The notes under the pieces were generated by a model. The model did no database searches, had not been told where the DNA came from, and saw nothing but the letters and a program-made list of their open reading frames with translations. Positions 20,301 to 51,419 of a stretch of DNA of 57,776 nt are shown one piece after another. Numbering within the stretch: the stretch's first letter is position 1; each line of letters opens with the position of its first letter. The translations under genes were made by a program, and so were the position numbers. Origin of the DNA: Nanobdellota archaeon (GTDB lineage: Archaea > Nanobdellota > Nanobdellia > Woesearchaeales > JBBSVZ01); the NCBI GenBank assembly GCA_038046545.1, contig JBBSVZ010000005.1:1-57776 (forward strand), given 5' to 3'.

Positions 20301-23300
20301 CAGTTCTGAAGTAAGATTAATTTTAGATACGTTAAATTCCTTTTCAATATTAGAAAGGGCTTCCCAAAGATTATCATAGTTGCTTATCGGAGCCCCTACA
20401 TTATTAGACTTAAACCACTTTTTGAAATTACTTTTTACTACATCACAACTATCTTCAATTTCTAAATCAGTACACGGACTATGACAATATGCCAAAGTGC
20501 CAGTATTAATTACCAAAGTTCCAGTACCCGTTCCTCCTATAACTGGATTAGGTGAGTCTGCGGTTTTTTCTGGAAGATCTGCATGAAATATTTCAATCTC
20601 ATTCGGAAAGTCTGTAACAACTGGATCCCCAGGTGGATCAACTTTAACATTAATTTCTGATATGTAAAGAGCTCCATCTAATTTTACCTTGTCGTCCTTA
20701 AAAGATGGCTTTATATCTTTCACTACTAAGGCAAATCCAGTTTCAGCTGTTATGCTCTTGAATTGCTTTGTGAATGTCTTTTGAAAGACTGTGTATTGCC
20801 CAGGAACCTTTATTACCCCGGTTTCAACCAGTCCCTGGATAACAGGTTTTACTTTTTGAGGTAGAGGAACTGGAATAGAAACTTCTGCAATTTTAGTCTC
20901 AGGGTTCAGGGAAAATTCGATTTCAAACTTATAATTGTCTAACAATTGGTTGAAAACTTTTTCTGGAAATTCGTCTGGATTATCATAATATAATTTTATT
21001 TCACTTAGAACAGAATCTACATCGTCATTTTCTGTAAAATTGATAATCCTGTCTAAAATCTTAACAGTACTATTTATGGTATTAACCAAACCTGTTTGAT
21101 TCTTAGCCCTGAAAGATATCAGTTGCAAAGTGGATTTCAAATCATACGCAGATTCTCTCAGTTTGCTCTTGGCTTCAATTATGTTCTGGGTTGTAGCCGC
21201 TCCGCCAGGACTGCCTCCTGAGCTGCCAGCTATAGCTTTTAAATCTTTTACATCTTGGACAAACTCCCTTCCCTGCTGCAAAACTAAATAAATGAATGCG
21301 ACTGTTTCAATTCTTGGATCTTTCAAAGGAATTATATAATTTATTTCGATATCTACCGGCTTTCTAAGATCGACGTCAAAAACCTGAAAGCCATCGCTTT
21401 CCAAGTCTTCTTTCATTTTTTTCATTTCTTTAGGACTTCTTAGGTAGTCGTGAACCAGCAGCACAGGCCTTCTGATGACGTCTATGTCCTTTGAGACATT
21501 TTTGGACCAAGTTCCTGCATTGTCTTTAACTCGGAATGTTACTTTTTGTATTCCTAAAGCAGCTGCGGTAAATGTGTGAGCAACTACACTGCCATTTATA
21601 ATCTGGTCTTCGATAATCCATTCTTGATTAGTAACGAAACCGTCATCGTCAAAGCCAAATCCATTAAACTCTACGGGTTCTCCAACAATTGCAGATAATT
21701 TTCCTTTATTATCTGTAAACCCTTTGATATATCTAATGAAAGCTGTAGGAAGTTTATTGACAACAAGCGGTTTTCTTGAGTCTGCATTTTGCGGCGACCA
21801 TAATCCAATAACATCCTTGACAAAATAATCAATTATGTGAGGATTTGCCGGAGGCAGCAAGTCTGTTGATATCGAGCTGGTAGAGCTTATATTAACAACT
21901 CCTCCTATTTTGCCAACCTTATGCGATTGCCACCAATGCTCTCTTATATCAAGTCCTGGAATTCCATAACCATTAAAATCAATTGTTTCTTTAACCAACG
22001 CAACAGGGAAGGGATTGATAGTATCGATAAAAGCGCTTGGAGGCGTGGTATTCATGGAAACATACAGAGCATCTGACTTAGGCCCTACCGAAGGATCGAA
22101 GCCATCCATCCAACCGAAAAACTGTCCAGCCTCTACAACACCATCGCCATTATAATCCCTGTATATCGCTGGTTGTGAGCAGTTCTGGCAACTAACAGTA
22201 AATTCTACAGAGAAGGCCGTGTCATTGTTGGGGGCGCTAACATCAAAATGAGTGGCGTTCTTTGTGCCTTCGCTCCTGTTCAACTTATTCGCATCAGATT
22301 CTTGAGCCTGCCATGGAATTGTGAAAAAAGTGATGGCGAAGAGCTCCTTGGTATTGTAATCCATTGATAATTTTACGTTTGGATTATCTGTTTCAAGCTG
22401 GTATTTAATTAATTCAATTGTATTATTGATAGTGTGGGGAAGCCCTGTGCCAAACCCTAAATTGTAATCGGTAACAAGTTTGTTCGGCTCTCCATAGCTA
22501 ACTGTACCGTTACAAAAATCGGTTTGAGTTTTAGACCAGTCTCTGTTTTTAAGGCCACTTGCATCCAACTTGTACCCTAAGGTCACCCACCCTTTAAGCC
22601 AGGCACCTCTATTGCAATATTTAGTAACTGGAACTGTAAACAAACTACTGCTGGGAAAAGATGGAGTACCGATTGAATATTCCCCCCTTGTTTCCTTGAA
22701 TGTGTTTTCAGATGATCCAGAATAAGTATACCCTCCAGGAGCTGATATTCTTATATAACCATCCTCCTCAGAGCATTTTTTTAGAAGCGTGCCTTTTTTC
22801 TCTAAAGTCTGCGTCTCGGTTACAGTAATGTAATCAGTAAAAGTTTCTCTTCCTACTGCTTTTATTTTACATGTAAAATCTTGGGGAACACTTTCAGAGC
22901 CTGATGCAAATATTTCATAATCAAATGGATGGTCCAATATTTCCGCATTTTTTTTTCCTGCATGCAATTCTATTTCTGGTTCATAAACTATCCAGGCGTA
23001 AAACTCAGCACTTTTGTCAGTAATAAATATGTCGCTTCCCGGATTTCCATAGTACGTATTCCCTCCAAAAGTTATGGACATTTCATTAATTTCAACTATA
23101 TCTGCGTTGCATTCATTTGTAAGATTTACAATAAACTTATCGAAATCTGTGTCATTGACATTCCCGGGTCCTGTTTTTTGGCATTGACCGCCTGACGATG
23201 TGACAGCGGTGACGTTCCAGATAAAAGAGTCGTTTGTCGGCTGCGGGCATGGCTCATCTATTGCAACTGTAATCGATGTGATGTTATCAATAGGAATTGT

Positions 23301-24030: not shown

Positions 24031-26460
24031 GTGACCGATTTGCCTATTATGGCAAAATGGTCAAGGAAAAAAAAGACAATTTACGCTCTCCTCTTCTTGA
24101 CAGCAGTCATTATTTTGGTGTTTTTTGGTGCTCAACTGGGCTTGTACTTAAACTTCCTCGTCGGGAATGACATCCTAATCAGGCTTTCGGCTAGCAGAGA
24201 ATACATTTCAATTATGAATGGGGAAAAAACAAATGTGACTTTCAAAATTGACACGCTCAACAATGTGTTTTGCGAGGCCAAGTGCATGCTTGAGTTCGAA
24301 GACTTAACCAGGAACTCTTCAGCCAAACAAAACATTTCATTAAGATCTGGCAGCAAAATCCAACGAACTTTTGAAATTATTGCCCCGTTAACAGGCACCG
24401 GGAGCGAAGTCTATCGGTTCAGCGTATCATGCTCGAATGAAAAAAAGGTTTTTTGCCCAGCAGATGACAGCAGGACTTCAAGAAAAGTTCTTGTGGTAGT
24501 TGAGCACGATTTGACCCCCGTTGAGCGGCTATTGCAAAAAGACTTGAAGGAAAAAATCTTGGGATTCCAGGAAACTCTTGCAAACCAGTCATCCGCTGAG
24601 GGAGCAATAAAATCTGCTTACGACAAAATTGAACAATCAAAAGAAAGCAGCGATGCTGAGCGGAACTGGTTCTTCCTGGTAACTTCTCTTAAAGAAAACG
24701 AAAATGCATTGGCTGCTCTAATCCAGCTCTGGAAACAGGGAGATTACTATGCTGCCTCAAACAAGGCAGAACTGGTGATGAGCTCATTCTCAGCAACAAA
24801 TGTAAAGCTTGCAACAGCAAAGCAATCTGTTGAGAGTCTTGCCAACCGGCATAATGAGATAATAAGGAAGTTTAACGAGGCAAAAGAAAAAGTATCTAAG
24901 CTAACAGCAGTAAAAACTACTGATTCCCTAATTATGAATGAAGCTGAGAATGCAATACGCCATTTTAATGAATCAACAAATTCAGCAAATCAGGAGATTA
25001 AGCTGGAAGCGCGCGAAAACTTAGCGGAAACGGCTTTGACTAACACACTCTTATCATCAAGCAAGATAAACTACTCTTTGAGAATCGAAGCAGTCAAAAA
25101 GGAAGTTAAAACTGACCTAAAATTTGAGCTTGTCTGCAATGTTTCGGGAAATTGTCAGACTCATCCCTCGCCTTACAACAGATCACATCAGACTGAAGTT
25201 GACATGAATTTAACCTGCGAGCGCCTTAATGTTTTGAACTCAATAATCAAACAAATTACAGCTAATTACACTAATATAACTCTTAATGAGAGTTCTAAAC
25301 TTGTTGCAGATAAAGAACTGGCAACAATAGAATATGCGCTGAAAGAGAGATATGCCTTGCAAATAGACCCTGATGGCGTAAACGGGCCAGAACTCTTAGA
25401 AATGCTTGGGAGTAAAAACAATCTAACAAATATTTCCAGTTTGGTTAACAAAACCTTGTTGCTGGCTGAACTCTCAAAAATACCTTTGGATAGCTGCGCA
25501 ACTTTACCAGCCAAACAAATTGCCTTAGTTGACTTTTCTGCTGCTGAAATTATAATCGCGCCACAAACTCCCCAACAAATTTTTCAGCCACTAATCGATC
25601 CCAAACCGCAATGTTGCTTGTTTGGTTCATGTACTGCCTGCTGCGAAGGGGAATCCTGCCGAAATAGCCCTTCAAAATACCCGATAATCTTTCTCCACGG
25701 GCACTTGGTGAATAACCAGCTTTCAGTAGACTACAGCCTCGAGGCATTCAACTATTTTCAACTGGCTCTTGAGAAGGAAGGCTGGCTCGATGCTGGTGCG
25801 ATATCGCTTTATACTTCCGGAGAAGTTCCTTACGGAGCATGGGGAAGATTTCCAAATCCGCTCACCATAAAAGGCAGTTATTATTATGACGTATTCCTCG
25901 ACCAGGGAAATTATGTATACCAGCCGACCAAAAGTGAAAATATAGACACCTATTCAATCCGGCTGAAAGAACTTATAGATAAGGTGCAGTTTAGGACAGG
26001 CAGCCCAAAAGTAATCCTTGCAGGCCACAGCATGGGCGGTCTTGTTGCGAGAAGGTACTTGCAGATATTCGGAAATGAAAAAGTGGACAGGCTTATCGTT
26101 ATTGGCACCCCCAATAAAGGCATAGAAGGCAATGTCGCGGCGTTCTGCCCGGTCATTGGAGCTAAACGCGAGTGCGAGGACATGAGCGAAGACAGCATTT
26201 TCCTAAAAAAACTTAATTCTGGAGAACCTTCCAAAATACCCCTATTCAATATAATCGGCACAGGCTGCAATATGAACGGCGAACAGGGGGACGGGATAGT
26301 CCTTGAGAGAAGCGCTCAGCTTGATGGCGCATTCAATTTTGTTTTCAATGGAACTTGCAGCAGCCAATATGATAATCTGCACAACCACATGCTTTTCCCG
26401 GAAGAATACCCTGAAGTTTACGAGTTTTTTAAGAAAGCCTTGACGGCTAATTCGACATAG
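24031..26460 (+). CDS. Membrane-anchored coiled-coil protein with a Cys-rich linker and a C-terminal PGAP1/lipase-like alpha/beta-hydrolase domain; likely start is ATG 24049
   Basis: An N-terminal TM is followed by a long helical Lys/Glu/Ala-rich region and CCLFGSCTACCEGESC. Hydrolase motifs are IIFLHGH, AGHSMGGLVARRY and VIGTPNKG. The TATA GCATTAAATATTC fits the ATG at 24049. Confidence 0.75.
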   Translation: MTDLPIMAKWSRKKKTIYALLFLTAVIILVFFGAQLGLYLNFLVGNDILIRLSASREYISIMNGEKTNVTFKIDTLNNVFCEAKCMLEFEDLTRNSSAKQNISLRSGSKIQRTFEIIAPLTGTGSEVYRFSVSCSNEKKVFCPADDSRTSRKVLVVVEHDLTPVERLLQKDLKEKILGFQETLANQSSAEGAIKSAYDKIEQSKESSDAERNWFFLVTSLKENENALAALIQLWKQGDYYAASNKAELVMSSFSATNVKLATAKQSVESLANRHNEIIRKFNEAKEKVSKLTAVKTTDSLIMNEAENAIRHFNESTNSANQEIKLEARENLAETALTNTLLSSSKINYSLRIEAVKKEVKTDLKFELVCNVSGNCQTHPSPYNRSHQTEVDMNLTCERLNVLNSIIKQITANYTNITLNESSKLVADKELATIEYALKERYALQIDPDGVNGPELLEMLGSKNNLTNISSLVNKTLLLAELSKIPLDSCATLPAKQIALVDFSAAEIIIAPQTPQQIFQPLIDPKPQCCLFGSCTACCEGESCRNSPSKYPIIFLHGHLVNNQLSVDYSLEAFNYFQLALEKEGWLDAGAISLYTSGEVPYGAWGRFPNPLTIKGSYYYDVFLDQGNYVYQPTKSENIDTYSIRLKELIDKVQFRTGSPKVILAGHSMGGLVARRYLQIFGNEKVDRLIVIGTPNKGIEGNVAAFCPVIGAKRECEDMSEDSIFLKKLNSGEPSKIPLFNIIGTGCNMNGEQGDGIVLERSAQLDGAFNFVFNGTCSSQYDNLHNHMLFPEEYPEVYEFFKKALTANST

Positions 26461-34451: not shown

Positions 34452-35333
34452 ATGAGAAGATTATTTCTGCTTGGTGGTACTGGATTAGCAGCAATTGTCA
34501 TGGCGTGCAGCTCCGGAGGAAACAGCAGCTCGCCAACTTCTACTGGACAGCATTCGGATGAATATGATTTTATCTGTAATGACATGTCAAACCCTGATGA
34601 CATCTCCCAAAATATTATCGACACGAAATCGGAGTTTATAACAAATTTCCAAGGCTATGAAGGATTTAGTGAAGAAAATTTTTCTAATTTGAGAGAAAAA
34701 GGACAACGTCTTCCGGCAGGTAATGCTTATCGCGACGAAGATTTGCATGGCGACCTTTACGGTTTGAATATGTTATTTGTGCATTTGCCTTCAAAAACTG
34801 TCGATATAGTTACTTCATATTTTGGGACGATAGATGCATTGTGCTTTAGAGAAGATAATATCCCTTACGTTTTGGTCAACCTTCCTGATGATTTATTGAG
34901 CCAAAAAATAATCCAATATTCTCCAAAATCAGCCCCCCTTTTCGGAAAAATTCAAGTACAAACCTCGGGACCGAGGATGTATCCAATCAACAATAAGACA
35001 ATTGCTGAATCTCCTGTTACAATTGATGAATTAATGGAATCAATCAATAAGATCCCTGATTCGGATTATGCAAAAAAATTCAAGGAGGTTCCAAATTGGC
35101 ACGTGGAAATAAAAGGAATAAATTTCGAAATTGAGTCTGGACTTGCCTATAGTCTACACCCTTTATTCAATCAAGATGGCGATACGGATCCTTCACATTA
35201 TGTAATTGTTTCAGTGCCTTTTAGCATAGACGCCAGCTCAGAACATAACAGTCCGATTTTTAATTCAGTTCAAGACCCGTCGACTATTACAAGGTATCCA
35301 GCGGGCTCCTCACTTTCTTCAGTTCCTCAGTAG
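34452..35333 (+). CDS. Lipoprotein-like secreted protein (hypothetical), paralogue of 33524-34420
   Basis: Lipobox-like AAIVMAC. Motif NAYRDEDLHGDLYGLNMLFVHLP. Confidence 0.6.
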   Translation: MRRLFLLGGTGLAAIVMACSSGGNSSSPTSTGQHSDEYDFICNDMSNPDDISQNIIDTKSEFITNFQGYEGFSEENFSNLREKGQRLPAGNAYRDEDLHGDLYGLNMLFVHLPSKTVDIVTSYFGTIDALCFREDNIPYVLVNLPDDLLSQKIIQYSPKSAPLFGKIQVQTSGPRMYPINNKTIAESPVTIDELMESINKIPDSDYAKKFKEVPNWHVEIKGINFEIESGLAYSLHPLFNQDGDTDPSHYVIVSVPFSIDASSEHNSPIFNSVQDPSTITRYPAGSSLSSVPQ

Positions 35334-36099
35334 AGACTTTAGTGTAAATCTGAGTTGTCTGCAGATTGGAATGGCCTAAAAGCTCCTGTATTTTTCTGAT
35401 ATCGGTGCCGTTTTCCAATAGATGAGTGGCAAAGCTGTGCCTGAGCGTATGTGGAGTTACTCTCTTGCTGATGCCTGCCTTTAAAGCTGTCCTTTTGACC
35501 ATTTTTTGCACGTTTCTTGGTGTCAAAGGCAGACCTGAAGAGTTGATGAAGATATGGCCGCTGGGAGCTTTCTTTTGGCTTACAAATGAAGCAAGCTCTG
35601 CAATCAGGCTGTCGGAAAGAATTAGCAACCTATCTTTCCTGCCTTTGCCTGAACGTACCCATCCGATCTTTTCTTTTGATTCCAAATCCTCGTGCTTTAG
35701 GTGGACTAATTCGGATACTCTCAATCCTGACGAATAAAGCATTTTCAGCATGAGCTTGCTCTTGCCATTTTTTGCTGAGTTGATAAGATTCTTTACTTCA
35801 TCTTTAGACAAAACTGTCGGCAGTTTTTTGCTGATTTTTGCCGTCTTGAAATGAACGACGTTCTTGTTCAAAATTTCGCCGTAATAGAACTTTAGCGCGG
35901 CTTTTATCAGAGCAATTGTGTTCTGCGAAAGCCTTTTCTTAATCAGCGAACCGATGAATCGCTTTACATCATCTTCAGAAATGTCTTTTGGCTCTTTTTT
36001 TATCCACTTCAGGAACCGTGCATTGTGGGAAAGGTAAGCCTTTGCAGTGTGTTCTGATACGCCTCTCAACTGCAATTCTGTTTCTAAATCTTCAAGCAT
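35287..36099 (-). CDS. xerA: Tyrosine recombinase, XerA (XerC/D-like)
   Basis: N-terminal SAM-like domain. C-terminal motifs SGLRVSEL, RHSFATHLLENGTDIRKIQELLGHSNLQTTQIYT. Confidence 0.85.
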   Translation of the reverse strand: MLEDLETELQLRGVSEHTAKAYLSHNARFLKWIKKEPKDISEDDVKRFIGSLIKKRLSQNTIALIKAALKFYYGEILNKNVVHFKTAKISKKLPTVLSKDEVKNLINSAKNGKSKLMLKMLYSSGLRVSELVHLKHEDLESKEKIGWVRSGKGRKDRLLILSDSLIAELASFVSQKKAPSGHIFINSSGLPLTPRNVQKMVKRTALKAGISKRVTPHTLRHSFATHLLENGTDIRKIQELLGHSNLQTTQIYTKVSTEELKKVRSPLDTL

Positions 36100-36141
36100 A
36101 GAAAACGATATTATGCGAACACTTGCTTAAATAGGTATTGT

Positions 36142-36495
36142 TTATGCTCGGCTATTTCCTTGGTCTAAAAAATCCATTGCAAATCTGGTTAAGTTTATGT
36201 AAAGATCATTAGTTGCCGCGATTCCTTCTAATGAATGATCTTTCACGCTAAGTTTTAAATTAACACTTGATTTTCCTTTTCCAATAATAGTTGCAGTTTC
36301 ACCATAGGTAATATTGAATTCTGAAGCTTGTGATTGCCCTTTAACCGAAGCGCGATATCCATCTAATAGACTTCTTGGGTGAGTAGTATGTCTAATTTGT
36401 TCGGCCATCAAATAATCACTTAATTCAGTGGTGAATCTGGTACGATCTTCACGTGTAGAAACGTGAGTCGATTCAATTTTAAAATTATATTCCAT
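36142..36495 (-). CDS. Hypothetical protein (117 aa)
   Basis: ORF with a TATA-like element upstream. No motif recognised. Confidence 0.45.
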   Translation of the reverse strand: MEYNFKIESTHVSTREDRTRFTTELSDYLMAEQIRHTTHPRSLLDGYRASVKGQSQASEFNITYGETATIIGKGKSSVNLKLSVKDHSLEGIAATNDLYINLTRFAMDFLDQGNSRA

Positions 36496-36555
36496 TTTAA
36501 TGTAGCTAATTTAATGATATTTATAAATCTTTTTATTTTTGTTACTTGATGGTAA

Positions 36556-36996
36556 TTACAAGAACTCGTCCTTATCAGCTTCTTCGGGATCAAATAAATC
36601 TGGATCCAATTCGGCTTCCCCATCGTGGTACTCATAACGTGTTCCGCCCTCAACAACTTTAAGGGTGACGTGCTGCGAGAGTTTTATGAGAATTTTTTTC
36701 AGATAATCGAGCGCTGCGCCAGTCGCATCAGCACTGCCAGAAAGCTTTTCGTCAGGGCCAGGATAATAAAATTTGACACCATAAACATCAAGATAATATT
36801 CGTCACCATCTTTTTCGAGCTTTAATCTGTTGGAATTAGCCATGATAGTTATGTCGTGCTTTATCCGACGTCCAACTTCCTTTGCTACAGCGTGCTCCTC
36901 AGAAAGGCTCTTGTGTTTCATCTCTTCCAAGAGCTTTGCTTTATCCTCTTCAGAGAAATCGTTGACATCAACCTGCTTCCATGCGATCTTGACCAT
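36556..36996 (-). CDS. Hypothetical acidic protein (146 aa)
   Basis: ORF with the TATA CCTTAAATAT 20-29 nt upstream of the ATG. Acidic C-terminal tail. Confidence 0.5.
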   Translation of the reverse strand: MVKIAWKQVDVNDFSEEDKAKLLEEMKHKSLSEEHAVAKEVGRRIKHDITIMANSNRLKLEKDGDEYYLDVYGVKFYYPGPDEKLSGSADATGAALDYLKKILIKLSQHVTLKVVEGGTRYEYHDGEAELDPDLFDPEEADKDEFL

Positions 36997-37029
36997 GGTT
37001 TATTCTAAGGAGGGAGAGATATTTAAGGT

Positions 37030-37422
37030 TTATTGCTTTCTAGAATCAGTTATATCATCAATGCTTGAATAACTTCGTTTATTCTCATTTCTTAGAGATA
37101 TCGCATTAGTGATGGCTGGGATGGCAATTATCCACGCTTTATCATCCAAATCTGAGATTGCACCATAAGCAATTCCTAGTTCAACATAAATTGCAGCAAT
37201 TCCACAAACGGTTCCAGAAACTTTACCAATTATCCGATAATAAGCCGATTCTGCTGAATTAGGCAAGGAAACCTTTTCGCTTTGTTCTTTATTTTTCTTG
37301 ATGCCATCATAAGTTTCCCGGACTACTGAAGGAAAGCGGAAAGGTAATGTCGCCAAATATGCTGAGCTCTTGAAAAAGTATTTCGGAAACTCTAGGTGGG
37401 GATCATTTATTTTTTCTGTCAT
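37030..37422 (-). CDS. Hypothetical membrane protein (130 aa)
   Basis: Two hydrophobic segments (GTVCGIAAIYVELGIAYGAI and WIIAIPAITNAI). Confidence 0.45.
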   Translation of the reverse strand: MTEKINDPHLEFPKYFFKSSAYLATLPFRFPSVVRETYDGIKKNKEQSEKVSLPNSAESAYYRIIGKVSGTVCGIAAIYVELGIAYGAISDLDDKAWIIAIPAITNAISLRNENKRSYSSIDDITDSRKQ

Positions 37423-37551
37423 GGGGCTGGGTAATTATCTAAAATTTATCAATTTTATCCAACTGCTGAAAATTGAACTTTTCTGAAAATGGTATAATGT
37501 GCTTTTTAGTATTCTAATATACTAATAACTATCATCAAATCACGTTTTTAG

Positions 37552-37575
37552 TTCGCATAATGTATATTATGCGAA
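37552..37575. promoter_or_regulatory. Perfect 24-nt palindrome TTCGCATAAT-GTAT-ATTATGCGAA
   Basis: Read directly from the sequence, in the spacer between two ORFan genes. The half-site ATTATGCGAA recurs at 36110-36119, between the xerA TATA and ATG. Confidence 0.35.
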
Positions 37576-37618
37576 TGTTAGCTAATCCTGAAGAAAAAAT
37601 AGTGTATTGAAAATATAT

Positions 37619-38392
37619 TTACATAAATATGGTTCTGTCCATATGGAACAGCATTTCATCCCTGCGCTTAAAGCTTTCCATCCTGACTGCTTTAGCAGCC
37701 TCATCATGGATTCTGTCAACAACAGCTTCGCTATTGGGCTCTAAATTCTTGTAGATGGGTCTGCTAACGCACAAATATCGAGCAATTTTGGCAGGATAAA
37801 AAGCATAGAGTGATGTTCCTAAAGCAACATCCTCATCAACTCCTTGTGTGCGAAGCAAGTAATAAAGGCCTACAGTTGCAGCTCCAAATGCAGTTCCAAT
37901 AGCCCTTCCAAATAACGAACCCTCAATTAGCTTATATTCAAGATATCTGCCCATAAAAGCAGTATCAGTTTCATTTCCTTCTTTTAAAGTATCATAGCCA
38001 ACTATGTAATTCGGAACTTGCATTGGCATCCCCAAATGATTTCTTGCACCAAACACGGCAAGAAATTCGTGAGTTGTTGAATAAGCTGCAACAGTCCAGG
38101 CTAATCGATAGGCTTCGCCCATAATGCCGTTGATCACATTAAATTTAAGGAAATTCTTTTCACTTTTGCTGTGAGGGTCCAATATGTGTATGATGTCTTC
38201 AAGAGAAGGTTTTGCCACGGGGTGAGTTATTGCTTTTTTTATAGTCGATATTCCTGATTTGATCTTTTCTGCCAAGGTTGAATTTTCTGTTTGTGTTCTC
38301 CTCAAATTTCCCAAACGTCTTCTTGAATAAGCGTCGTCAAGCAGAGTTTGGCCTAAAGAGTCCTGCAAGAACGCAGCATGATTAAGAGTCAT
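37619..38392 (-). CDS. Hypothetical protein (257 aa), partly hydrophobic
   Basis: ORF with the TATA CTTATAAAAC upstream. No motif recognised. Confidence 0.5.
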   Translation of the reverse strand: MTLNHAAFLQDSLGQTLLDDAYSRRRLGNLRRTQTENSTLAEKIKSGISTIKKAITHPVAKPSLEDIIHILDPHSKSEKNFLKFNVINGIMGEAYRLAWTVAAYSTTHEFLAVFGARNHLGMPMQVPNYIVGYDTLKEGNETDTAFMGRYLEYKLIEGSLFGRAIGTAFGAATVGLYYLLRTQGVDEDVALGTSLYAFYPAKIARYLCVSRPIYKNLEPNSEAVVDRIHDEAAKAVRMESFKRRDEMLFHMDRTIFM

Positions 38393-38428
38393 AAACTTAT
38401 AAAACGTAGAGATTATAAAATTATTTTG

Positions 38429-38749
38429 CTAATCAGAATTTACCTGTTCATAAATCTCGTGCCAGAGACCGTCGACAACTTTGTGCTGCTCTTTAAACGG
38501 CTTTGCTGCAGTATTAATTTTTGCTTCCTCTATTCTGTCAAATAAAATTGCACCGGAAAAAGGTGATTCATTGTGCAAAGCAAGTTGGACCCATGATGAT
38601 AATGTGGAAGGTGGATTTTGCAAATTCTCGTGCCAGGACCTTGCTATGCCTAGCTTTTCTGAGAGGTAGTTCTGCATATTCTCGAAAGCTTCGCTCACGT
38701 CTGGGTGGAGCTGACTATCATTTTTAAATTCAACCATATTGGTATACAT
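38429..38749 (-). CDS. Hypothetical protein (106 aa)
   Basis: ORF at the head of the minus-strand ORFan string. Confidence 0.45.
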   Translation of the reverse strand: MYTNMVEFKNDSQLHPDVSEAFENMQNYLSEKLGIARSWHENLQNPPSTLSSWVQLALHNESPFSGAILFDRIEEAKINTAAKPFKEQHKVVDGLWHEIYEQVNSD

Positions 38750-39228: not shown

Positions 39229-40662
39229 CTAAGGCAATATCCCGCTTTCAGCCACTATATCCCAGTATTCAACCCCAAAATGAAATGGATCGTCAAAAAA
39301 TTGCTTTAAAACAGCGCCTGATTCGGGCGTTATTCGAAAATCTGAGGCGCAATAAAGCTGTTGCTCTGGCTGGCCCATCACCCCCCAAAAAATGGCGCCA
39401 TGGACTCGTCCTTCATTCGCTAACTTCGAAAAAACAGTAGCTGTTGTCCTGTAATAATTCATTTGCTCGTCGGTGAATGAAGGAATTGTTTCGACCAAAC
39501 CACCCGGAAATAAACAGCCAAAGGGATAAGCAGAATTGCTATTGTTCGAGCCTGTCTCAGTTAAAAGTGAGTATTGTTTTCCAGTGAATATTGTACTAAG
39601 AGTTTGTTGGAATGGACTTGGAATAAAACTTCCAGTGCTTTGCTCGAATTCTGCTCCTGTAAACTGCCTTATCGCTGAGGCCTGATCAAATGGAGTCGTA
39701 TCGCCTCTTCTGGCAGCTAATTGATTCCTTGCAGGACTATATGAGTTAGTCCCATTCACAAATAGCCCAAAATCCTGAGTGTCGTCGAAATTTGGCTGAT
39801 AGGTCATAACTCCATCGTAGCTATGCTCTAATTCCTTGAGCAAACCTGCAAATTCTGGCCTTTGCTGGGCAACCCTCATCTCATCAAACATGACCAACAA
39901 AGGAACGTTATTTGCATGGGCAAAATTCACATAATCCATCCCCGTATTTTTCAAATTCCGTAGCCATTCAGCCCATTCCGCTTCTCCAAAATATTCTCCG
40001 ATAGAAGCTCGCCAATTCGTTCCAAGGCGGGCAGATTCGGCTGCGGTCGGGTCAATCTGAATTCTTATTCCGGGAACCAAACCATGCTCCCGAGCTTTAC
40101 CTACTGCATATTGCAGGGAGTTGTCTGCCGGTCCGGTTTTGAAAAACTGAGTCCCTTCATTCTCAACAGTCGTCAAAAAAACAACCGTGTTTGCATGGTA
40201 ATCATCCCTTATCTTATCGAGCATCGTATCCAGGTCAACAGTTGTATATGCTTCGGGAGCCCAACCTAGAACATAAACACCTCTAACAAATGCATTTGTG
40301 TGCACCATTAAATGGTCCCAAGCTAATTCTTCTTTGATGTTAGGGTCGGTGTATCCTCTAAGAAGTTCCTGTTCTAATTCACTTATCCTGCTGTAATAAT
40401 AATTTAATCCTGTGTTGTATTCAGGCAAATTTCCAAAAAGTTGATCTAGTCTTGTAGAATAAGGGTGAGGAGTTGGTTTAGGTGTTGGCGAAGCTGTGAT
40501 AAGAGGCGTTTGGCTAGACGGAATGTTAACTGTTGAAATACCATTGTTCGACTGTCCTAAGACGTTATCTAGCTGAGTGTAAACTTGCAATCCAAGAAAA
40601 GTTGAACTTGCACCTATCAATCCTGCAACAACTCCTGCTCCTACCAACTTTTTTATATTCAT
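39229..40662 (-). CDS. Secreted/anchored protein with a Pro/Thr linker and a putative TIM-barrel glycoside-hydrolase-like domain (tentative)
   Basis: N-terminal TM, a TPLITASPTPKPTPHP linker, then alternating beta/alpha pattern. 4-nt overlap with the upstream GT2 gene. Confidence 0.35.
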   Translation of the reverse strand: MNIKKLVGAGVVAGLIGASSTFLGLQVYTQLDNVLGQSNNGISTVNIPSSQTPLITASPTPKPTPHPYSTRLDQLFGNLPEYNTGLNYYYSRISELEQELLRGYTDPNIKEELAWDHLMVHTNAFVRGVYVLGWAPEAYTTVDLDTMLDKIRDDYHANTVVFLTTVENEGTQFFKTGPADNSLQYAVGKAREHGLVPGIRIQIDPTAAESARLGTNWRASIGEYFGEAEWAEWLRNLKNTGMDYVNFAHANNVPLLVMFDEMRVAQQRPEFAGLLKELEHSYDGVMTYQPNFDDTQDFGLFVNGTNSYSPARNQLAARRGDTTPFDQASAIRQFTGAEFEQSTGSFIPSPFQQTLSTIFTGKQYSLLTETGSNNSNSAYPFGCLFPGGLVETIPSFTDEQMNYYRTTATVFSKLANEGRVHGAIFWGVMGQPEQQLYCASDFRITPESGAVLKQFFDDPFHFGVEYWDIVAESGILP

Positions 40663-42803
40663 CTACCCGCCACCGAGGATTGAGTTATTAATTCTGGGGC
40701 AATCTGTTCAACCAAAGGAATACCCTTGTGAGCAGTCACGCTCCAACCAAAATTGTTGTCAAGAATCTTCATCGCAGCTGCGGTCGGAGGCACACCCTGG
40801 AGGAACCAGTAAGCAACCTGAGTCGGAGCCATCAACCCCATCTGAATTTTTTTATTGAAGTCTATATTATAGCCTGCTTTTTTCGCTGAATAAATTGCGC
40901 CGTCAAGTGCGCAACCAATTTGTACGGCACCAGCCCCAGTCGTAAAAACACTTGGATAAAGTACCCAACCGGGAACCTGCCAGTCAGTCATCAAGTCAAT
41001 TCCCAATGATGCTACTGCCATGGGCATAATGGCCATGTTAATTGAGCTGTAAGTGGGAGAATAAAGCAGGAGATAGCTCATTTTCAGTTTGTCTGTTAAA
41101 TTAAAATTATTAGACTTCCAAACGCTTAAGATACTCTGCCCGAATCCATAAGCCCATCTTCTTCTTTGAGCTAACCATCCGCCATTCCAATTCCTTAGGC
41201 GCTGTGAAAGGTCACCTTCGACACCAAACATGTCAGTGGGTGCTTCTTCAAGTGTATGAGTTTTAACAAGTCCAACTTTAGAGTGGTTAGCGGATAATAT
41301 CATCCCGGCCATCGCATCTTCAGTTTGGTTATAAGGATCTAAAATCCCAATTGAGTAAAAAGAATCCCTTGCCAGGGCATATGAAGTTCCTGATAACGTC
41401 AATGGAAACCCTGCTGCAACTGTGTCAGGGGCAAGTCTCCTGAAAAGAACAGAATAATCGGCGGCTGCATGGAATCCCAAAAAGCTGAAAGGATTCTTGG
41501 CAAAAAGCAGCCTTCCCTGCACTGCATCATATTTTTCGTGATTAATTGACCAATTGAATTTTCTAAACGCGTCTTTTTCAACTATAGTATCCTCCGCATC
41601 CAGAATTGTAATAAGAGTTTTTTTTCCGTCGGGTTGTGTTCTCGATTTTTTTCCATTTAGAGCAACCATGGCATAATCAATGTCGCCCGGCTTCATCCTT
41701 GGGGGAAGCTCCCCTTTGCTGAGTTTTTCAACCCATCCCATGTCAAGCTTTCTATCTGACGATGCAAGAAAATCAAAATAATTGTCCCAGGGCGTTTTTG
41801 GATGCTTCCAGCCTTTTTTCCATTCAACGTTATAGCCCTCTTTTTCAGCTGCATGCAACATTTGTGTTATGGCTCTTGTTGAAACCTGCTTGCCTCGGTA
41901 GCTATCTTTTCTCAACTTGTCATCAATAACTTGAGCAACTTCCTTGTTAGTCAGTCTTCTTAATCTTCCCTTTTCCTTATCAAAATAAGTTGTGTGATAA
42001 AGATTAACTACATCCTCTAATCCTGTTCCTGTATTTTGAGGCAAAGTCATTCCTCCTTCAGAAGCACGGTAAAATGCTGATGCTAAAGTGTTATAGGAAG
42101 CAACTTTTCTGCCGTCTCCGAAAAAATTCAGTGCATTTATCATCCTGCTTGTGCTTTCCTCATCAGCAATCTTTTCAAGAACAGAGTCTAAACTTTTTGT
42201 TGAGATACCCAGCGAACGGGAGTTGTCTTCTTTTCTGCCGCTAAACTTCCCGATGAATCTCTTGAATGGGCCGGGATTATTCTGCTTGTTCAAAAATTTG
42301 CTGACTTCTGGATTTATCCGTCCATAAAGCGAGTTCTCGTATCCCGGAACGTGGATGTGCATGACATCTTGATATGAGCGAGCAAGCATTTCTGCCGCAA
42401 TATACGTTCCTGATCTTTGCTTACCCTCGAAATGCTTCGATCTGGCTTTGTCCTTCGAGGACGTCACAAGAACAATTTTCTTATTTGAATATTCCTGCTC
42501 TCTCGAAGACCTAACAACCTCAGCGAGCACTTCATCTGGTTCATCAAAAGCGGGAATATAAACCTGTATCTCTGGCTCCTTTTTTTGAAAATCTGTTATG
42601 AACTCATCGTATCTCTCATCTGAATAATTATCGTCAATGTAAATCCTCTTTTCTTTTCCTAATGCTTTTTTTATACCGTGCAGGCCCATCATGGCGTACA
42701 TTCTAGTGGAATGCGGTACAGTGAGAACTACCATTGAACCGACAATAGTGCCCCAATTTTCAGCAACGGCGTGCTGGGTTTGTTCGAGTATGTCCTCTAA
42801 CAT
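40659..42803 (-). CDS. Processive family-2 glycosyltransferase (cellulose/chitin/hyaluronan-synthase-like) with a large internal insertion
   Basis: GT-A start VYIPAFDEP, DxD-type ILDAED, the TED motif (QTEDAMAG) and Q-x-x-R-W (QRRRW). C-terminal TM helices. About 280 aa lie between the first strand and the DAED. Confidence 0.75.
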   Translation of the reverse strand: MLEDILEQTQHAVAENWGTIVGSMVVLTVPHSTRMYAMMGLHGIKKALGKEKRIYIDDNYSDERYDEFITDFQKKEPEIQVYIPAFDEPDEVLAEVVRSSREQEYSNKKIVLVTSSKDKARSKHFEGKQRSGTYIAAEMLARSYQDVMHIHVPGYENSLYGRINPEVSKFLNKQNNPGPFKRFIGKFSGRKEDNSRSLGISTKSLDSVLEKIADEESTSRMINALNFFGDGRKVASYNTLASAFYRASEGGMTLPQNTGTGLEDVVNLYHTTYFDKEKGRLRRLTNKEVAQVIDDKLRKDSYRGKQVSTRAITQMLHAAEKEGYNVEWKKGWKHPKTPWDNYFDFLASSDRKLDMGWVEKLSKGELPPRMKPGDIDYAMVALNGKKSRTQPDGKKTLITILDAEDTIVEKDAFRKFNWSINHEKYDAVQGRLLFAKNPFSFLGFHAAADYSVLFRRLAPDTVAAGFPLTLSGTSYALARDSFYSIGILDPYNQTEDAMAGMILSANHSKVGLVKTHTLEEAPTDMFGVEGDLSQRLRNWNGGWLAQRRRWAYGFGQSILSVWKSNNFNLTDKLKMSYLLLYSPTYSSINMAIMPMAVASLGIDLMTDWQVPGWVLYPSVFTTGAGAVQIGCALDGAIYSAKKAGYNIDFNKKIQMGLMAPTQVAYWFLQGVPPTAAAMKILDNNFGWSVTAHKGIPLVEQIAPELITQSSVAGR

Positions 42804-42826
42804 GAAACGAAGAGATAACTCAGTAG

Positions 42827-42837
42827 CTTAAATATTT
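42827..42837 (-). promoter_or_regulatory. TATA box (CTTAAATATTT) for the GT2 operon
   Basis: Lies 24-34 nt upstream of the ATG at 42803. Confidence 0.4.
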
Positions 42838-42903
42838 AACTACTAACTAATAGTGAACTTATGTTTATTATTTACTTATAAGTAAAAAAATATTTAAACG
42901 ACT

Positions 42904-43527
42904 GTGAAATATTCGGTTTATGCGGGGGCAAAGATTATGAAAAAAACACTTATTTACCTGTTTTTATTTGCGATATCAATAGCGACTGCATTTGCGGGTT
43001 CTGGGAATCCTCTCGGGCAAGATATCTATATGGCTGCTCCGACTGATTACACGCCGGCACCTGGAGAATACCTACTGGGAGAAACTGTGACTCAATGTGT
43101 CGTGTTCACAAATAATGGGAACGTTTCCCATAATGTCAATCCTATGCTTTGGGCTGCGAGAATTTTAGAGACTGCTTGCGGAGAAGACGTTACTGACTCT
43201 GAACCAGATTTTTCGGAAGCTGAACTTGATGCTTTCCATCAGACAAGCTGCGATGTCCAGCAGTTCTTAGGAATACTCGACAGTCACCCTTACAGCTCTT
43301 TGGGTCCAGGCGAAAGCAAGAAATTCTGCTTCAGCTGGGTTCCTGCGGCAGCGGGGTACTATCAGTGTGACATAACTGGAAACGTCGATGGCCAAGGCTA
43401 CGACAGCTATGCTTGGTGTTTTATACGCGTAAGCAAAGAAGAAATTCCTGAGTTCACAGGAATTGCAGCTGGAATAGCAACAGCAGGCGCTGGCGCAGCA
43501 TTCTTGTTATTGAGAAGAAGGAAGTAA
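42904..43527 (+). CDS. Secreted protein with a PEF-CTERM-type sorting signal; likely start is ATG 42937
   Basis: Signal peptide MKKTLIYLFLFAISIATAFA. The C-terminus EEIPEFTGIAAGIATAGAGAAFLLLRRRK has a PEF motif, a TM helix and a basic cluster. Confidence 0.65.
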   Translation: MKYSVYAGAKIMKKTLIYLFLFAISIATAFAGSGNPLGQDIYMAAPTDYTPAPGEYLLGETVTQCVVFTNNGNVSHNVNPMLWAARILETACGEDVTDSEPDFSEAELDAFHQTSCDVQQFLGILDSHPYSSLGPGESKKFCFSWVPAAAGYYQCDITGNVDGQGYDSYAWCFIRVSKEEIPEFTGIAAGIATAGAGAAFLLLRRRK

Positions 43528-43531
43528 TTCC

Positions 43532-43550
43532 TTTTTTTTTATTTTTTTTT
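43532..43550 (+). terminator. Two T9 runs directly after the PEF-CTERM gene
   Basis: TTTTTTTTTATTTTTTTTT read directly from the sequence. Confidence 0.5.
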
Positions 43551-43573
43551 AATTAATTTATTCTAGTATCGAA

Positions 43574-44905
43574 CTAATTTGGTGCCCCTAGAAAATACAG
43601 TGGATTATTTGCAAAGACAATGTTTTTTCCTTTAATAGCATCTTTTTGGTGGTTAACAGCCCAGTTGTATTGCTGCAATCCAGTTTCGGGGTCTGCAAGT
43701 TCTCCTCCAAATAATGTCATTATCGTTTTTATGCCTTCGGGTTCAGGTTTTTTTGGAATTCCATTTGTAGCGATCATGGCAAAATAGATGTCTGCTGGAT
43801 TTGCATCTGGCAATTTAACTTTCTTCAATTGATCGTTTAGATCTGTCTTGTTGCCGAGTTTAGCAAGATGGTCGAGATGAGCATCCCACTCATTTACCGG
43901 TTTTTTTGGCCCTCGTTTCCAGTCAACATTAATTCCATATACTTCTGCAGCGTGGAGCATCTGATTGACTGCAGCATTCGTCACTTTTTTTCCGCGATAG
44001 CCATCGTCACGCAGCTGTTTATCCAAAACGTCAACTATTTCTCTGCTGGTCAGCCTTCTTATTCTGCTTTTATCATTATCGAAATGAGGCGTGTGGTAAA
44101 GATCAACTACTTGCCCTAAGAATTCTTTTAAGGCGGGCTGAAGGGGATTTCCCTGTGTAGAGGTCCTATAAAGAACAGATGCCAATGTGTTGTATGAAGC
44201 AGCATGTTTTCCGTCACTGTACCTCTCATCGAGCATATTTACCAAGCTTTGAATTTTTCCATCACCATTAAATCGGTATCTGGCAAGACTTTCAAGCGCC
44301 TTTTCAAGATTATTTTTCGTAACTCCCAGAGAACGGCCGCCAGTTTCTTTATTTGACTGCATTTTGGTAACAATTCTTCGGAAAATACCTGGGTGTTCCT
44401 GCTCATAAAGAATTTTGTCGACCTCGGGATTAATCCTGCCATACATTGAATTTTGATACTCCGAGGTTTGGACGTGAGTTACATTAGGCTGGGATTGCGC
44501 CGCTTCTTCTGCAAGGCTTTTTTGTGGCAAATAATGATTGTTTTTTTCAAAAATGGACATTCCACTTATGTCATTTGGAGATGAAACAAAAATTACTTGT
44601 TTTCTTGGATATTGCTGAGACATTAGACTCTCCATTATGTCAGTTACGCTTTTCTCCAGCCCTTTGAGAGGGATGTAAACCTGAACTTCGGGCTCAGTTC
44701 CCCCCTGAGCGCTTTGGACGAATTGCTGATAATTTTCTGGAGAAAAAATATTATCGTTAGCTATATTCTCAAAGCCTAAGAGTTTTTTAATTCCATAAAA
44801 TGCCTTTACTGCATACTCGCCTGTATTGCGAACTGGTTTTAAGATGCCCCCTGGTACTGGTTGCTCGAATCCAACGCCAGCTTGATTAGCTATCTGCTCA
44901 AGCAT
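43574..44905 (-). CDS. Truncated, catalytically degenerate paralogue of the GT2 N-terminal half (possibly a pseudogene)
   Basis: Collinear with aa 1 to about 440 of 40659-42803 (GRINPEV, ASYNTLAS, RRLT, QMLHAAE). It reads FGGEL where the paralogue has LDAED, and it ends before the TED and QxxRW motifs and the TM helices. Confidence 0.6.
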   Translation of the reverse strand: MLEQIANQAGVGFEQPVPGGILKPVRNTGEYAVKAFYGIKKLLGFENIANDNIFSPENYQQFVQSAQGGTEPEVQVYIPLKGLEKSVTDIMESLMSQQYPRKQVIFVSSPNDISGMSIFEKNNHYLPQKSLAEEAAQSQPNVTHVQTSEYQNSMYGRINPEVDKILYEQEHPGIFRRIVTKMQSNKETGGRSLGVTKNNLEKALESLARYRFNGDGKIQSLVNMLDERYSDGKHAASYNTLASVLYRTSTQGNPLQPALKEFLGQVVDLYHTPHFDNDKSRIRRLTSREIVDVLDKQLRDDGYRGKKVTNAAVNQMLHAAEVYGINVDWKRGPKKPVNEWDAHLDHLAKLGNKTDLNDQLKKVKLPDANPADIYFAMIATNGIPKKPEPEGIKTIMTLFGGELADPETGLQQYNWAVNHQKDAIKGKNIVFANNPLYFLGAPN

Positions 44906-50621: not shown

Positions 50622-51419
50622 ATGCGATTAATTATTTTGATTGTGGTTCTTTCAGCAATGTGTGGGGTAAGCGTTTCAGCAGCGCAGGAGAGACCACTTA
50701 TTCTTGTTCACGGTTTCCTTACTTTAGCATTAGGCCCAAATGCTTGCATTGCTCTTGCGAACGAAACTAAATTAGGGTCAATGTTTGAGCTGCAGTCAAG
50801 CTTTGTCCAAGATGGTCTTTACTCCCAAGGCTGGATTCTCAATGAAGACACAATTAGCTGCCCTCCTGTTGACAGCAAGCCAACTGTTGTCCGATTCACA
50901 TTCTATTCTGGATGCTATGAAGAAAAGAATGCATTTGAAACATACACAAACAGATTTGAGAAAACAATCAAGCACTTAAAAGAATGCACTGGTGCAAATA
51001 AGGTGGATATTGTTGCGCATAGTTTTGGGGGTTTGGTAGTAAGAAACTATATCAGAACAAGAAACAGCAGTGATATCGAAAAAATCGTATTCCTCACAAC
51101 TCCTCAGGCAGGTATAGGGGTTTTTCCAATCGCATTGGTAATGCCGTCTTGTTTATTGAACTGGATTCCTTTCTGCCCTTCAGAGGTTTTAGAAGCTAGA
51201 AGAACTTCTGATTTCATGAAAAAACTTAATAATCAGGAAAAACTCAAACAAACAATTTATACGATAAAAAGCTCCTTTGAATTCTTCTTTCCAAAAAGCA
51301 GTCCTGATGCTATAAACTCAAAAGAATCTGCATCTGTTAGCTGCTACCATGACGATATTTTCAGGCCGCATTCATGCCCTGAAGGATATGAGAAAATTAA
51401 GGAGTATTTAGAGGATTAA
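50622..51419 (+). CDS. Secreted PGAP1/lipase-like alpha/beta hydrolase
   Basis: Signal peptide, then PLILVHGF, VAHSFGGLVVRNY (nucleophile elbow) and VFLTTPQAG. Confidence 0.7.
   Translation: MRLIILIVVLSAMCGVSVSAAQERPLILVHGFLTLALGPNACIALANETKLGSMFELQSSFVQDGLYSQGWILNEDTISCPPVDSKPTVVRFTFYSGCYEEKNAFETYTNRFEKTIKHLKECTGANKVDIVAHSFGGLVVRNYIRTRNSSDIEKIVFLTTPQAGIGVFPIALVMPSCLLNWIPFCPSEVLEARRTSDFMKKLNNQEKLKQTIYTIKSSFEFFFPKSSPDAINSKESASVSCYHDDIFRPHSCPEGYEKIKEYLED

Follow-up and report, generated by a model that had tools for sequence, protein, structure and literature searches.

Within the catalytic fold of a membrane glycosyltransferase of family GT2, encoded on the minus strand at 40659-42803 of a 57,776-nt stretch of archaeal DNA (the window, whose coordinates are used throughout), lies a domain of about 213 residues that appears new and oddly placed and is known from only a handful of DPANN sequences, all of them metagenomic. 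Four open reading frames of the window make up the analysed stretch: the GT2 synthase of 714 residues, a GH113-like glycanase that overlaps it (39229-40662, minus strand, 477 residues), a PEF-CTERM-type protein (42904/42937-43527, plus strand, 207 or 196 residues) and a truncated GT2 paralogue (43574-44905, minus strand, 443 residues). The locus is a small surface-glycan module of a DPANN archaeon, built from the GT2, its coupled glycanase and the divergent PEF-CTERM-type protein. The host is placed among the DPANN (Nanoarchaeia) archaea because a member of the P0003 protein cluster, which is related to the synthase, is annotated as Candidatus Nanoarchaeia archaeon, and because archaeal Lon, PAC2, XerA-type integrase, NurA and similar genes also lie within the window. 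The inserted domain has counterparts on another synthase and on the truncated paralogue, and may serve for protein docking and assembly.

By its motifs and its predicted fold, the product of 40659-42803 is a membrane-integrated GT2 that belongs structurally to the processive class. Cellulose, chitin, hyaluronan and numerous biofilm polymers are products of such synthases, and the TED and QxxRW motifs are hallmarks of this channel-forming class, exemplified by BcsA, hyaluronan synthase (HAS) and the chitin synthases. Two Pfam models, PF13632 (5.5e-15) and PF13641 (3.9e-10), match the protein above their gathering scores, the Pfam match extending across residues 380-588. The sequences that a first-pass annotation of this DNA had singled out as processive hallmarks, VYIPAFDEP (residues 81-89), ILDAED (400-405), QTED (493-496) and QRRRW (546-550), are all present and align with canonical GT2s, and the catalytic residues follow one another in canonical order: D118, D402-x-x-D405 (DAED), T494-E495-D496 and Q546-RRR-W550. 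The GT2 part of protein P0006 (PF00535, 1.9e-28) was taken as the canonical reference. When a profile of the synthases from which the insert had been deleted was compared with it by hhalign, β1, D118, K371 (the Lys of the ‘GK’ motif), DxD, TED and QxxRW aligned, the motif partners in P0006 being VVDD, DSD, TED and RQWSRW. The TED motif also aligns with that of E. coli BcsA.

The full-length AlphaFold2 (AF2) model of the synthase, with a predicted local distance difference test (pLDDT) score of 71.3 and a predicted template modelling score (pTM) of 0.72, gives 44 Foldseek matches at E ≤ 1e-3. Hyaluronan synthases head the list (9yq5_A and 7sp7_A, E 1.9e-8 to 4e-8; Chlorella virus HAS at 1.9e-8, and Xenopus HAS1), and further matches include BcsA (4p00, 2.7e-6), chitin synthases and plant CesAs. 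The TM-scores are only 0.3-0.5, because the insert is without counterpart and the membrane part is poorly modelled. By sequence, the best match in the Protein Data Bank (PDB) is BcsA, at E 0.74.

The C-terminal membrane region comprises residues 561-714 (40662-41123, minus strand), with 3-4 weakly hydrophobic helices suggested by AF2 and hydropathy. Transmembrane helices had been claimed here from the sequence, and helices are modelled (542-563, 569-581, 583-607, 623-642 and 649-682), but they are only weakly hydrophobic, with Kyte-Doolittle peaks of at most 1.46 and two segments above 1.2, and confidence is low at residues 582-622 (pLDDT <50).

The interruption of the catalytic fold is apparent in the Pfam match itself. 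PF00535 matches the N-terminal strand only (profile positions 2-37 on residues 81-117), and the match resumes at residue 380 (PF13641 position 76), leaving about 228 surplus residues. Direct MAFFT alignment of insert-bearing and insert-less GT2s puts the N-terminal half of the GT-A fold onto the insert; insert-deleted constructs and split fragments were used instead, residues 157-368 being removed from the three insert-bearing proteins for alignment with the insert-less archaeal protein P0004. The insert-deleted proteins align with P0004 end-to-end, N-terminus included (MLEDI versus MIENI), and P84, A85, E88, D118, H151, G154, K371 and P372 are invariant in this alignment.

The N-terminal half of the GT-A fold spans residues 76-155 (42339-42578, minus strand) and contains β1 (VYIPAF), α1, β2 (VLVTSSKD, in which D118 is the first conserved Asp), α2 and β3 (HIHVPGYE); the model has strands at 79-84, 108-115 and 147-152. 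The C-terminal half, residues 369-560 (41124-41699, minus strand), contains the K371-P372 helix of the ‘GK’ motif, DAED, QTED, a 15-residue loop, and QRRRW on the interface helix. The inserted orphan domain occupies residues 156-368 (about 213 residues; 41700-42338, minus strand). It is basic and mostly helical, with one β-hairpin, and is missing from P0004 and from the bacterial relatives P0007-P0009 described below. Because the insert-deleted alignments and hhalign place GT-A elements on either side, the insertion site can be set exactly between β3 and the Lys-Pro (‘GK’) helix; in the full-length model the elements of the insert fall between the strand at 147-152 and the helix at 371-383. 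An insert of about 280 residues at 41620-42480 had been proposed earlier. There is a true insert, but its size and boundaries are those given here; the larger estimate had taken in β2, α2 and β3 of the GT-A fold (residues 108-152), which are kept upstream of the insert.

A word-indexed search of 5.8 billion proteins returned only the cluster of the GT2 itself and three others. Its relatives P0002 and P0003 are 65% and 42% identical to it, and the insert-less P0004, which matches the catalytic part at E 3.5e-5, is 25% identical. The insert-deleted profile finds the bacterial GT2s P0007 (4.8e-27), P0008 (4.9e-21) and P0009 (1.2e-17), none of which has the insert, and the motifs KPxAL(x)YA, DAED, PLxLxGTS, DxxNxTED, E(E/D)APT and QRxRW are common to the GT2 and these bacterial relatives. 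Judged from these alignments, the GT2 belongs to a subfamily with the insert-less archaeal P0004 and bacterial GT2s, one of which, P0008, is named ‘XagB’ by its JGI source label only. The closest GT2 subfamily is thus without the segment, and the catalytic motifs align with those of canonical synthases. The first-pass annotation had held the spacing to be greater than expected of a GT2. This is correct in that the insert is missing from the closest relatives, but a large spacing has a precedent in the GT2 class, in the P-CR of plant CesA (PMC8384604).

Two further features of this subfamily were observed. P0004 (locus L005, 3301-5526) bears at residues ~500-741 a long, charged C-terminal extension with two similar stretches, YLxxKRIRKEAREEV and RSLRIRKSAREEI, and so carries a different accessory region on the same GT2 subfamily. 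There is also a second, family-specific insertion of about 15 residues in the GT2 (residues 525-542; window 41178-41231), within MFGVEGDLSQRLRNWNGG and just before QRRRW. This loop is kept in the three insert-bearing orthologues and is missing from P0004 and the XagB-like proteins.

When the insert is modelled alone by AF2 from five sequences, it folds into about 11 helices and one β-hairpin with a mean pLDDT of 79.6 and a pTM of 0.79. The earlier statement that it could not be assigned to any known domain is borne out by the searches: Pfam (E ≤ 1), NCBIfam, PHROGs and the PDB (phmmer and profile) gave no consistent match, and Foldseek with the insert model found no relative in the PDB (best E 1.9, TM-scores <0.25) or in BFVD (best E 0.96). 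Weak matches to RsgI (0.023), a bromodomain (0.054) and RecX (0.0024, in one of five copies) were taken as chance. No internal repeats were detected by hhalign on four segments of the insert.

The insert had been described as having a helix-turn-helix (HTH) look, and it might be thought to be a nucleic-acid-binding domain that confers regulatory DNA or RNA binding on the synthase or the paralogue. Its basic composition, helix-loop-helix stretches in the model at residues 286-299 and 309-321, and the RecX match from NCBIfam would all suit such a function. The resemblance does not survive comparison with known families, however, because no HTH or winged-helix Pfam model matches, even at E up to 1, and the Foldseek searches give neither a DNA-binding fold nor any match with E clearly below 1. 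A DNA-binding domain inside the catalytic fold of a membrane enzyme is implausible in any case, and we regard this function as highly improbable.

An exhaustive HMMER search of 1.84 billion cluster representatives with a four-copy profile of the insert found four proteins only: the GT2 itself, the neighbouring paralogue, P0003 and P0006 (E 7e-11). The distribution of the insert thus amounts to four clusters, outside which the orphan domain has no detectable relatives. With the insert profile, no confirmed locus was obtained from the GTDB species-representative genomes, and a single scan of metagenomes gave one locus only, L002.

The most informative of these proteins is P0006, in which a canonical GT2 is followed by membrane helices, a GNAT acetyltransferase and then, at the C-terminus of the 781-residue chain (residues 599-747), the core of the insert. 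The assignment is confirmed by hhalign (probability 96.9%, E 1.8e-10), and the part in common, defined by hidden Markov model (HMM) and hhalign, corresponds to residues 195-336 of the window's GT2 (41796-42221, minus strand). Three architectures of the domain are therefore known: it can lie inside a synthase, at the C-terminus of one, or on a truncated protein without catalytic function. Since it is predicted to fold confidently alone and recurs C-terminally in P0006 behind the GT2, transmembrane and GNAT parts, the orphan domain is, on the evidence of sequence and model, an autonomous module.

Conservation within the domain is concentrated on particular residues. G199, S242, R246, R283, T285, L297, Y302, G304, L316, A319, E320, V326, W328, K329 and D340 are invariant in all five copies, and four copies that are only 30-51% identical share 44 invariant residues. 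The four copies from the synthases and the paralogue are basic, with isoelectric points (pI) of 9.3-9.5 and net charges of +6 to +9; the pI of the P0006 copy is 8.5. Between orthologues the insert is 51% and 41% identical, compared with 84% and 56% for the catalytic GT-A half.

Ligand sensing is the closest rival to docking, on account of the basic surface of the domain and its place beside the nucleotide-binding Lys. In such a scheme the insert would be an allosteric receptor, the functional counterpart of PilZ in BcsA or of the MshEN domains in bacterial GT2s, switched on or off when a small anion, for instance a nucleotide or sugar phosphate, binds to it. The consistently basic character of the domain (pI 9.3-9.5), the invariance of R246, R283, K329, Y302, W328 and E320 in all five copies, and an insertion site that adjoins the ‘GK’ motif are consistent with this idea. 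So too is the occurrence of the domain always on processive-type GT2s yet at varied positions, internal or, as in P0006, C-terminal; regulatory modules such as PilZ occur at varied positions on synthases. Set against these features is the lack of any likeness to PilZ, MshEN or a known nucleotide-binding domain: neither PilZ nor MshEN (T2SSE_N) has a Pfam or NCBIfam match in the GT2, in the insert or in the paralogue. For DPANN archaea no ligand is known, and retention of the domain in a dead, soluble paralogue is easier to explain by docking. An MshEN-type c-di-GMP receptor in the N-terminal domain of the XagB-like bacterial relatives was considered and dropped, as it has no Pfam match; with no Pfam match in those N-terminal domains there is no argument from a regulated subfamily. 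Ligand sensing seems unlikely, though less so than the remaining alternatives.

The second copy of the domain in the window lies in the truncated paralogue, at residues 151-366 (43808-44455, minus strand; HMM E 6e-99). BLASTP aligns the paralogue with the GT2 at 40% identity across residues 26-443 (E 2e-96), in agreement with the first-pass annotation, which had recognised the insert in both proteins. The motifs it listed do occur in both copies, but with transcription slips: the GT2 reads LYGRINPEV rather than MYGRINPEV, and the pair at another site is VVNLYHT/VVDLYHT. The paralogue keeps the N-terminus, a degenerate N-terminal GT-A half and the insert; it has LFGGEL in place of ILDAED and ends soon after, without DxD, TED, QxxRW or a membrane region. 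Because DxD is lost and the chain ends before TED and QxxRW, it must be catalytically dead. It has no Pfam match, and no remnant of its missing C-terminal half occurs elsewhere in the window. The insert is its best-conserved part, at 46-48% identity to the GT2 compared with 33% for the N-terminal GT-A half. Since this insert is closer to the clade of the window's GT2 and P0002 than to P0003, the paralogue probably arose within that clade. The paralogue is absent at L006-L008, where a glycerate-kinase gene lies on that side, and by this comparison it is lineage-specific. An intact frame of 443 codons at only 40% identity, with the insert most conserved, suggests that it is maintained.

These data also bear on the notion that the insert has no function and is a passenger that expanded in a surface loop of this lineage, the paralogue being a decaying remnant. 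A distribution of four clusters among 1.84 billion representatives is very narrow, and among orthologues the insert evolves faster than the catalytic parts, both of which could be expected of a passenger. Such an origin would not readily produce a compact domain that is confidently predicted alone, 44 invariant residues across copies of only 30-51% identity, reuse in a second architecture, or a paralogue that, at 40% identity, keeps a frame of 443 codons open and is best conserved in the insert. There is little to recommend this explanation, and we consider it barely credible.

The partner of the synthase is encoded by the adjoining gene. The stop codon of the GT2 and the start codon of the glycanase share the sequence ATGA, and this 4-nt overlap, noted in the earlier annotation, is real; translational coupling of the two genes is indicated by it. 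The product of 39229-40662 is, as judged from its sequence, an N-terminally anchored, extracytoplasmic GH113-like glycanase of the clan GH-A type, which agrees with its earlier description as a secreted hydrolase. It has a hydrophobic anchor at residues 6-24 and then a Pro/Thr-rich linker. Pfam GH113 (PF22612) matches at 6.9e-8, with 32.6 bits versus a cutoff of 27, over profile positions 45-167 of 289 only. In the PDB, searches with the single sequence or a three-sequence profile match solely GH113 β-1,4-mannanases, at E 1.4e-4 to 0.04. E261 (FDEM) aligns with the acid/base Glu (CEM) of 5yli. The motif TETG (T-E-x-G) at residues 368-371 is invariant in three orthologues, and E369, which lies outside the aligned region, is a plausible catalytic nucleophile.

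The third member of the module is a small, secreted protein of 196 residues with a signal peptide and six conserved Cys, divergent from the synthase across an AT-rich intergenic region (42804-42936, read directly from the sequence) in which promoters are presumed to lie. Its C-terminus, EEIPEFTGIAAGIATAGAGAAFLLLRRRK, consists of IPEF, a hydrophobic helix (hydropathy 1.73 at residues 174-192) and RRRK, in keeping with the PEF-CTERM surface protein recognised at first reading. The mechanical open reading frame starts at GTG 42904 (207 residues), versus ATG 42937 (MKKTLIYLF..., 196 residues); the latter is the likely true start because the database cluster representative and the orthologues have 196 residues. 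The L006 copy is 80% identical and conserves the PEF tail. The curated NCBIfam PEF-CTERM model gives no match at E ≤ 0.1, though models of such short signals are readily lost to filtering. The window open reading frames that were scanned include no archaeosortase, and a literature search on DPANN with PEF-CTERM, and on GH113 with an archaeal synthase, found nothing relevant.

The PEF-CTERM gene, the GT2 and the GH113-like gene, with the same 4-nt overlap, recur in L001, L002 and L006-L008, so that the core trio is conserved in three lineages by the criterion of gene order and sequence. This conservation bears on whether the GT2 is processive at all. If the enzyme were instead a non-processive membrane GT2, adding sugar to a lipid carrier or to a protein such as its PEF-CTERM neighbour, and the hydrolase had nothing to do with the product, this would be consistent with membrane helices that are few and weakly hydrophobic, and with a PEF-CTERM protein that is a strictly conserved neighbour. 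The highest target-normalised TM-score in Foldseek (0.59-0.61) is moreover to a non-processive archaeal mannosyltransferase, PcManGT. Yet TED and QxxRW are both present and aligned, processive synthases take all of the best Foldseek E-values, and the 4-nt coupling to an extracellular glycanase is kept in three lineages, the glycanase co-diverging with the GT2. A non-processive enzyme is therefore improbable, and the processive assignment is retained in what follows.

The synthase would polymerise a β-linked glycan from a nucleotide sugar and export it, and the glycanase would trim or release the polymer outside the cell. BcsZ, PslG and PgaB trim or release the polymers of their bacterial systems in this manner. 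Given the GH113 partner, a mannan-like product is conceivable. The orphan domain would be a cytoplasmic accessory module acting by protein-protein docking; it would bring synthase subunits together, join them to the non-catalytic paralogue, and thereby control activity. Its cytoplasmic location is deduced from topology, because the GT-A fold that surrounds it is cytoplasmic and because it lies behind the GNAT domain in P0006. We favour protein docking and assembly as the role of the insert, at a probability of roughly 0.45, because the domain is portable between positions, is always cytoplasmic and attached to a synthase, is preferentially kept on the soluble non-catalytic paralogue, and has a precedent, by analogy, in the P-CR of CesA.

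Several observations weigh against this interpretation. The domain is uniformly basic, and an anionic ligand, nucleic acid or lipid head groups would fit equally well. The paralogue is present in only one of the three lineages and cannot, therefore, be a general docking partner. The models rest on only about five sequences. The membrane region of the GT2 is poorly modelled, and with so few helices, all weakly hydrophobic, only the motifs and the fold speak for processivity and channel formation. The GH113 match spans only ~120 of 477 residues, and the putative nucleophile lies beyond it. The mannan idea depends on family labels and on a correlative link in Xanthomonas, where biofilm formation dependent on xagABC is reported to be linked to the mannanase ManA (PMC8042644). 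XagB-dependent exopolysaccharide contributes to the Xanthomonas biofilm (PMC3609779).

The chromosomal setting of P0006 provides a different view of the locus. In L003, L004 and L009, which represent a related archaeon, this protein is encoded at the orthologous chromosomal position, with the same block of XerA and small genes alongside. In every related locus the glycan genes adjoin this block, which consists of a XerA-type integrase and five small proteins of unassigned function (window 35287-38749; L003 1970-5416; L009 4538-7984; L006 14231-17871). The small proteins have 117, 146, 130, 257 and 106 residues in the window; in the P0006 loci XerA is accompanied by small genes of 128, 146, 137, 251 and 101 residues, and the flanking proteins there are 74-85% identical to those of the window. 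Across lineages the 146-residue acidic protein is 79-84% identical and the 106-residue protein 52-75%; the membrane-like proteins of 130 and 257 residues are only 28-35% identical to their L003 counterparts. The cassette beside the block in the P0006 loci (L003 5969-10848; L004 3735-8614; L009 8591-13416) is different from that of the window and encodes a PIG-L deacetylase, WbqC, the GT2-GNAT-orphan-domain protein (P0006/P0021) and a DegT aminotransferase. A different cassette at the same chromosomal site implies that the locus behaves like a variable surface-glycan island.

The company kept by the domain in P0006 raises the question of whether it is itself an enzyme that tailors the product or handles substrate, by modifying the donor or nascent polymer or by recruiting the donor, so that the synthase would be bifunctional. 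There it accompanies a GNAT domain in a cluster with the sugar-modification genes for PIG-L, WbqC and DegT, and several of its polar residues are invariant. The fold is mostly helical, however, with no recognisable nucleotide-binding or catalytic motif, and no enzyme family was matched by sequence or structure. The lower conservation of the insert among orthologues (41-51%, as against 56-84% for the catalytic half) is typical of accessory parts. It is quite unlikely that the domain is a tailoring enzyme, and docking remains the preferred role.

The genes of the module do not share a single pattern of divergence. The XerA integrase of the window is 84% identical to that of L006/L007 and 79% to that of L001, and the corresponding values are 82% and 79% for the 146-residue protein, 74% and 52% for the 106-residue protein, and 80% and 63% for the PEF-CTERM protein. 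The order is reversed for the GT2 (43% with L006/L007, 65% with L001) and the GH113-like protein (46% and 63%). The flanks and the PEF-CTERM protein are thus nearer to L006/L007, and the GT2 and GH113-like protein nearer to L001, which implies that the synthase-hydrolase pair co-diverges, or is exchanged, independently of its surroundings. Comparison of these identities suggests cassette exchange or diversifying selection on the pair, and the discordant pattern resembles, by analogy, that of surface-antigen loci. A more ambitious proposal can be framed from these observations: the orphan domain may be a portable cytoplasmic control module of archaeal polysaccharide synthases, unknown until now, that switches the surface glycan of a DPANN episymbiont through a small molecule or through hetero-oligomerisation with the dead paralogue, in a hypervariable, cassette-swapping locus. 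Taken as a whole, this proposal is doubtful, although within reach of the data.

Elsewhere in the window, a giant open reading frame of 3155 residues at 14382-23849 (minus strand) possibly encodes a large surface protein of a type common in DPANN genomes. Two genes for α/β-hydrolases (lipase or PGAP1-like) lie at 24031-26460 and 50622-51419, both on the plus strand; the product of the first has 809 residues, with the hydrolase domain confined to its C-terminus.

To our knowledge, the control and assembly of processive GT2 synthases have been explained for a few accessory domains only: PilZ, the P-CR and CSR insertions of CesA, and zinc fingers. The present locus adds an archaeal case, in which a foreign autonomous domain is spliced into the catalytic fold beside the nucleotide-binding Lys and recurs both on another synthase and on a paralogue that is dead. 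A very narrow distribution, a handful of metagenomic sequences, limits the finding, and the clues to function come from context only. If the domain mediates assembly or regulation, it would represent a new control device for processive GT2 synthases, and would also open a way to study how DPANN archaea, with their reduced genomes, make the surface glycans that they probably need for contact with a host.

Comparison with known systems separates what is familiar in this locus from what is not. Like the processive synthases HAS, BcsA, chitin synthases, NodC and CesA, the GT2 combines a GT-A fold carrying the first Asp and the DxD, TED and QxxRW motifs with predicted interface and membrane helices further along the chain. 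Unlike them, it shows very low sequence similarity to the class, its ‘GK’ motif is split by a 213-residue foreign domain, it has a 15-residue extra loop before QRRRW, and its membrane helices are few and weakly hydrophobic. The XagB-labelled GT2s and P0004 are the closest sequence relatives of the catalytic part and have the subfamily motifs in common with it. The XagB-labelled bacterial enzymes differ in that they are without the insert and have about 200 extra N-terminal residues and strongly hydrophobic transmembrane helices. Their N-terminal cytoplasmic domain and two N-terminal transmembrane helices have no counterpart in the archaeal GT2, which starts ~200 residues later and has one weak N-terminal hydrophobic segment.

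The nearest parallel to the orphan domain is the P-CR of plant CesA, a helical insertion in the GT-A fold between the first Asp and DxD that protrudes into the cytoplasm, makes a trimer contact and bears a basic patch (PMC8384604). The P-CR is about 123 residues long, comprises a two-helix coiled coil and a strand, and lies between β4 and β6 in the numbering of that paper (PMC8384604). The orphan domain, in contrast, has about 213 residues with ~11 helices and a hairpin, and lies between β3 and the GK helix. The two are not similar by sequence or by Foldseek, and the insert alone matched no CesA, though CesA structures are present in the PDB library. The P-CR is an analogue of the orphan domain and not a homologue.

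The pairing of genes is more conventional. As in BcsA/BcsZ, PgaC/PgaB, Psl/PslG and Alg8/AlgL, a synthase gene is tightly linked to that of an extracytoplasmic glycanase, here in three lineages; in the bacterial exopolysaccharide pairs the linked enzyme is expected to cleave the product of its own synthase. The archaeal locus departs from these pairs in its GH113-like hydrolase, in having no BcsB-, PgaA- or PgaD-type partners, in the single membrane of the archaeal cell, and in its third member, the PEF-CTERM protein. The GH113 mannanases AaManA (3civ/4cd6), AxMan113A (5ylh/5yli) and BaMan113A (7dv7) belong to the sole Pfam and PDB family that the glycanase resembles, and their acid/base Glu aligns with its E261 (FDEM). 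The resemblance is confined to about a quarter of the protein (E ~1e-4), which is 150-170 residues longer than these enzymes and has a membrane anchor and a Pro/Thr linker. The module of synthase and glycanase is thus of a known kind, and what appears new is the interruption of the GT-A fold by an orphan domain.

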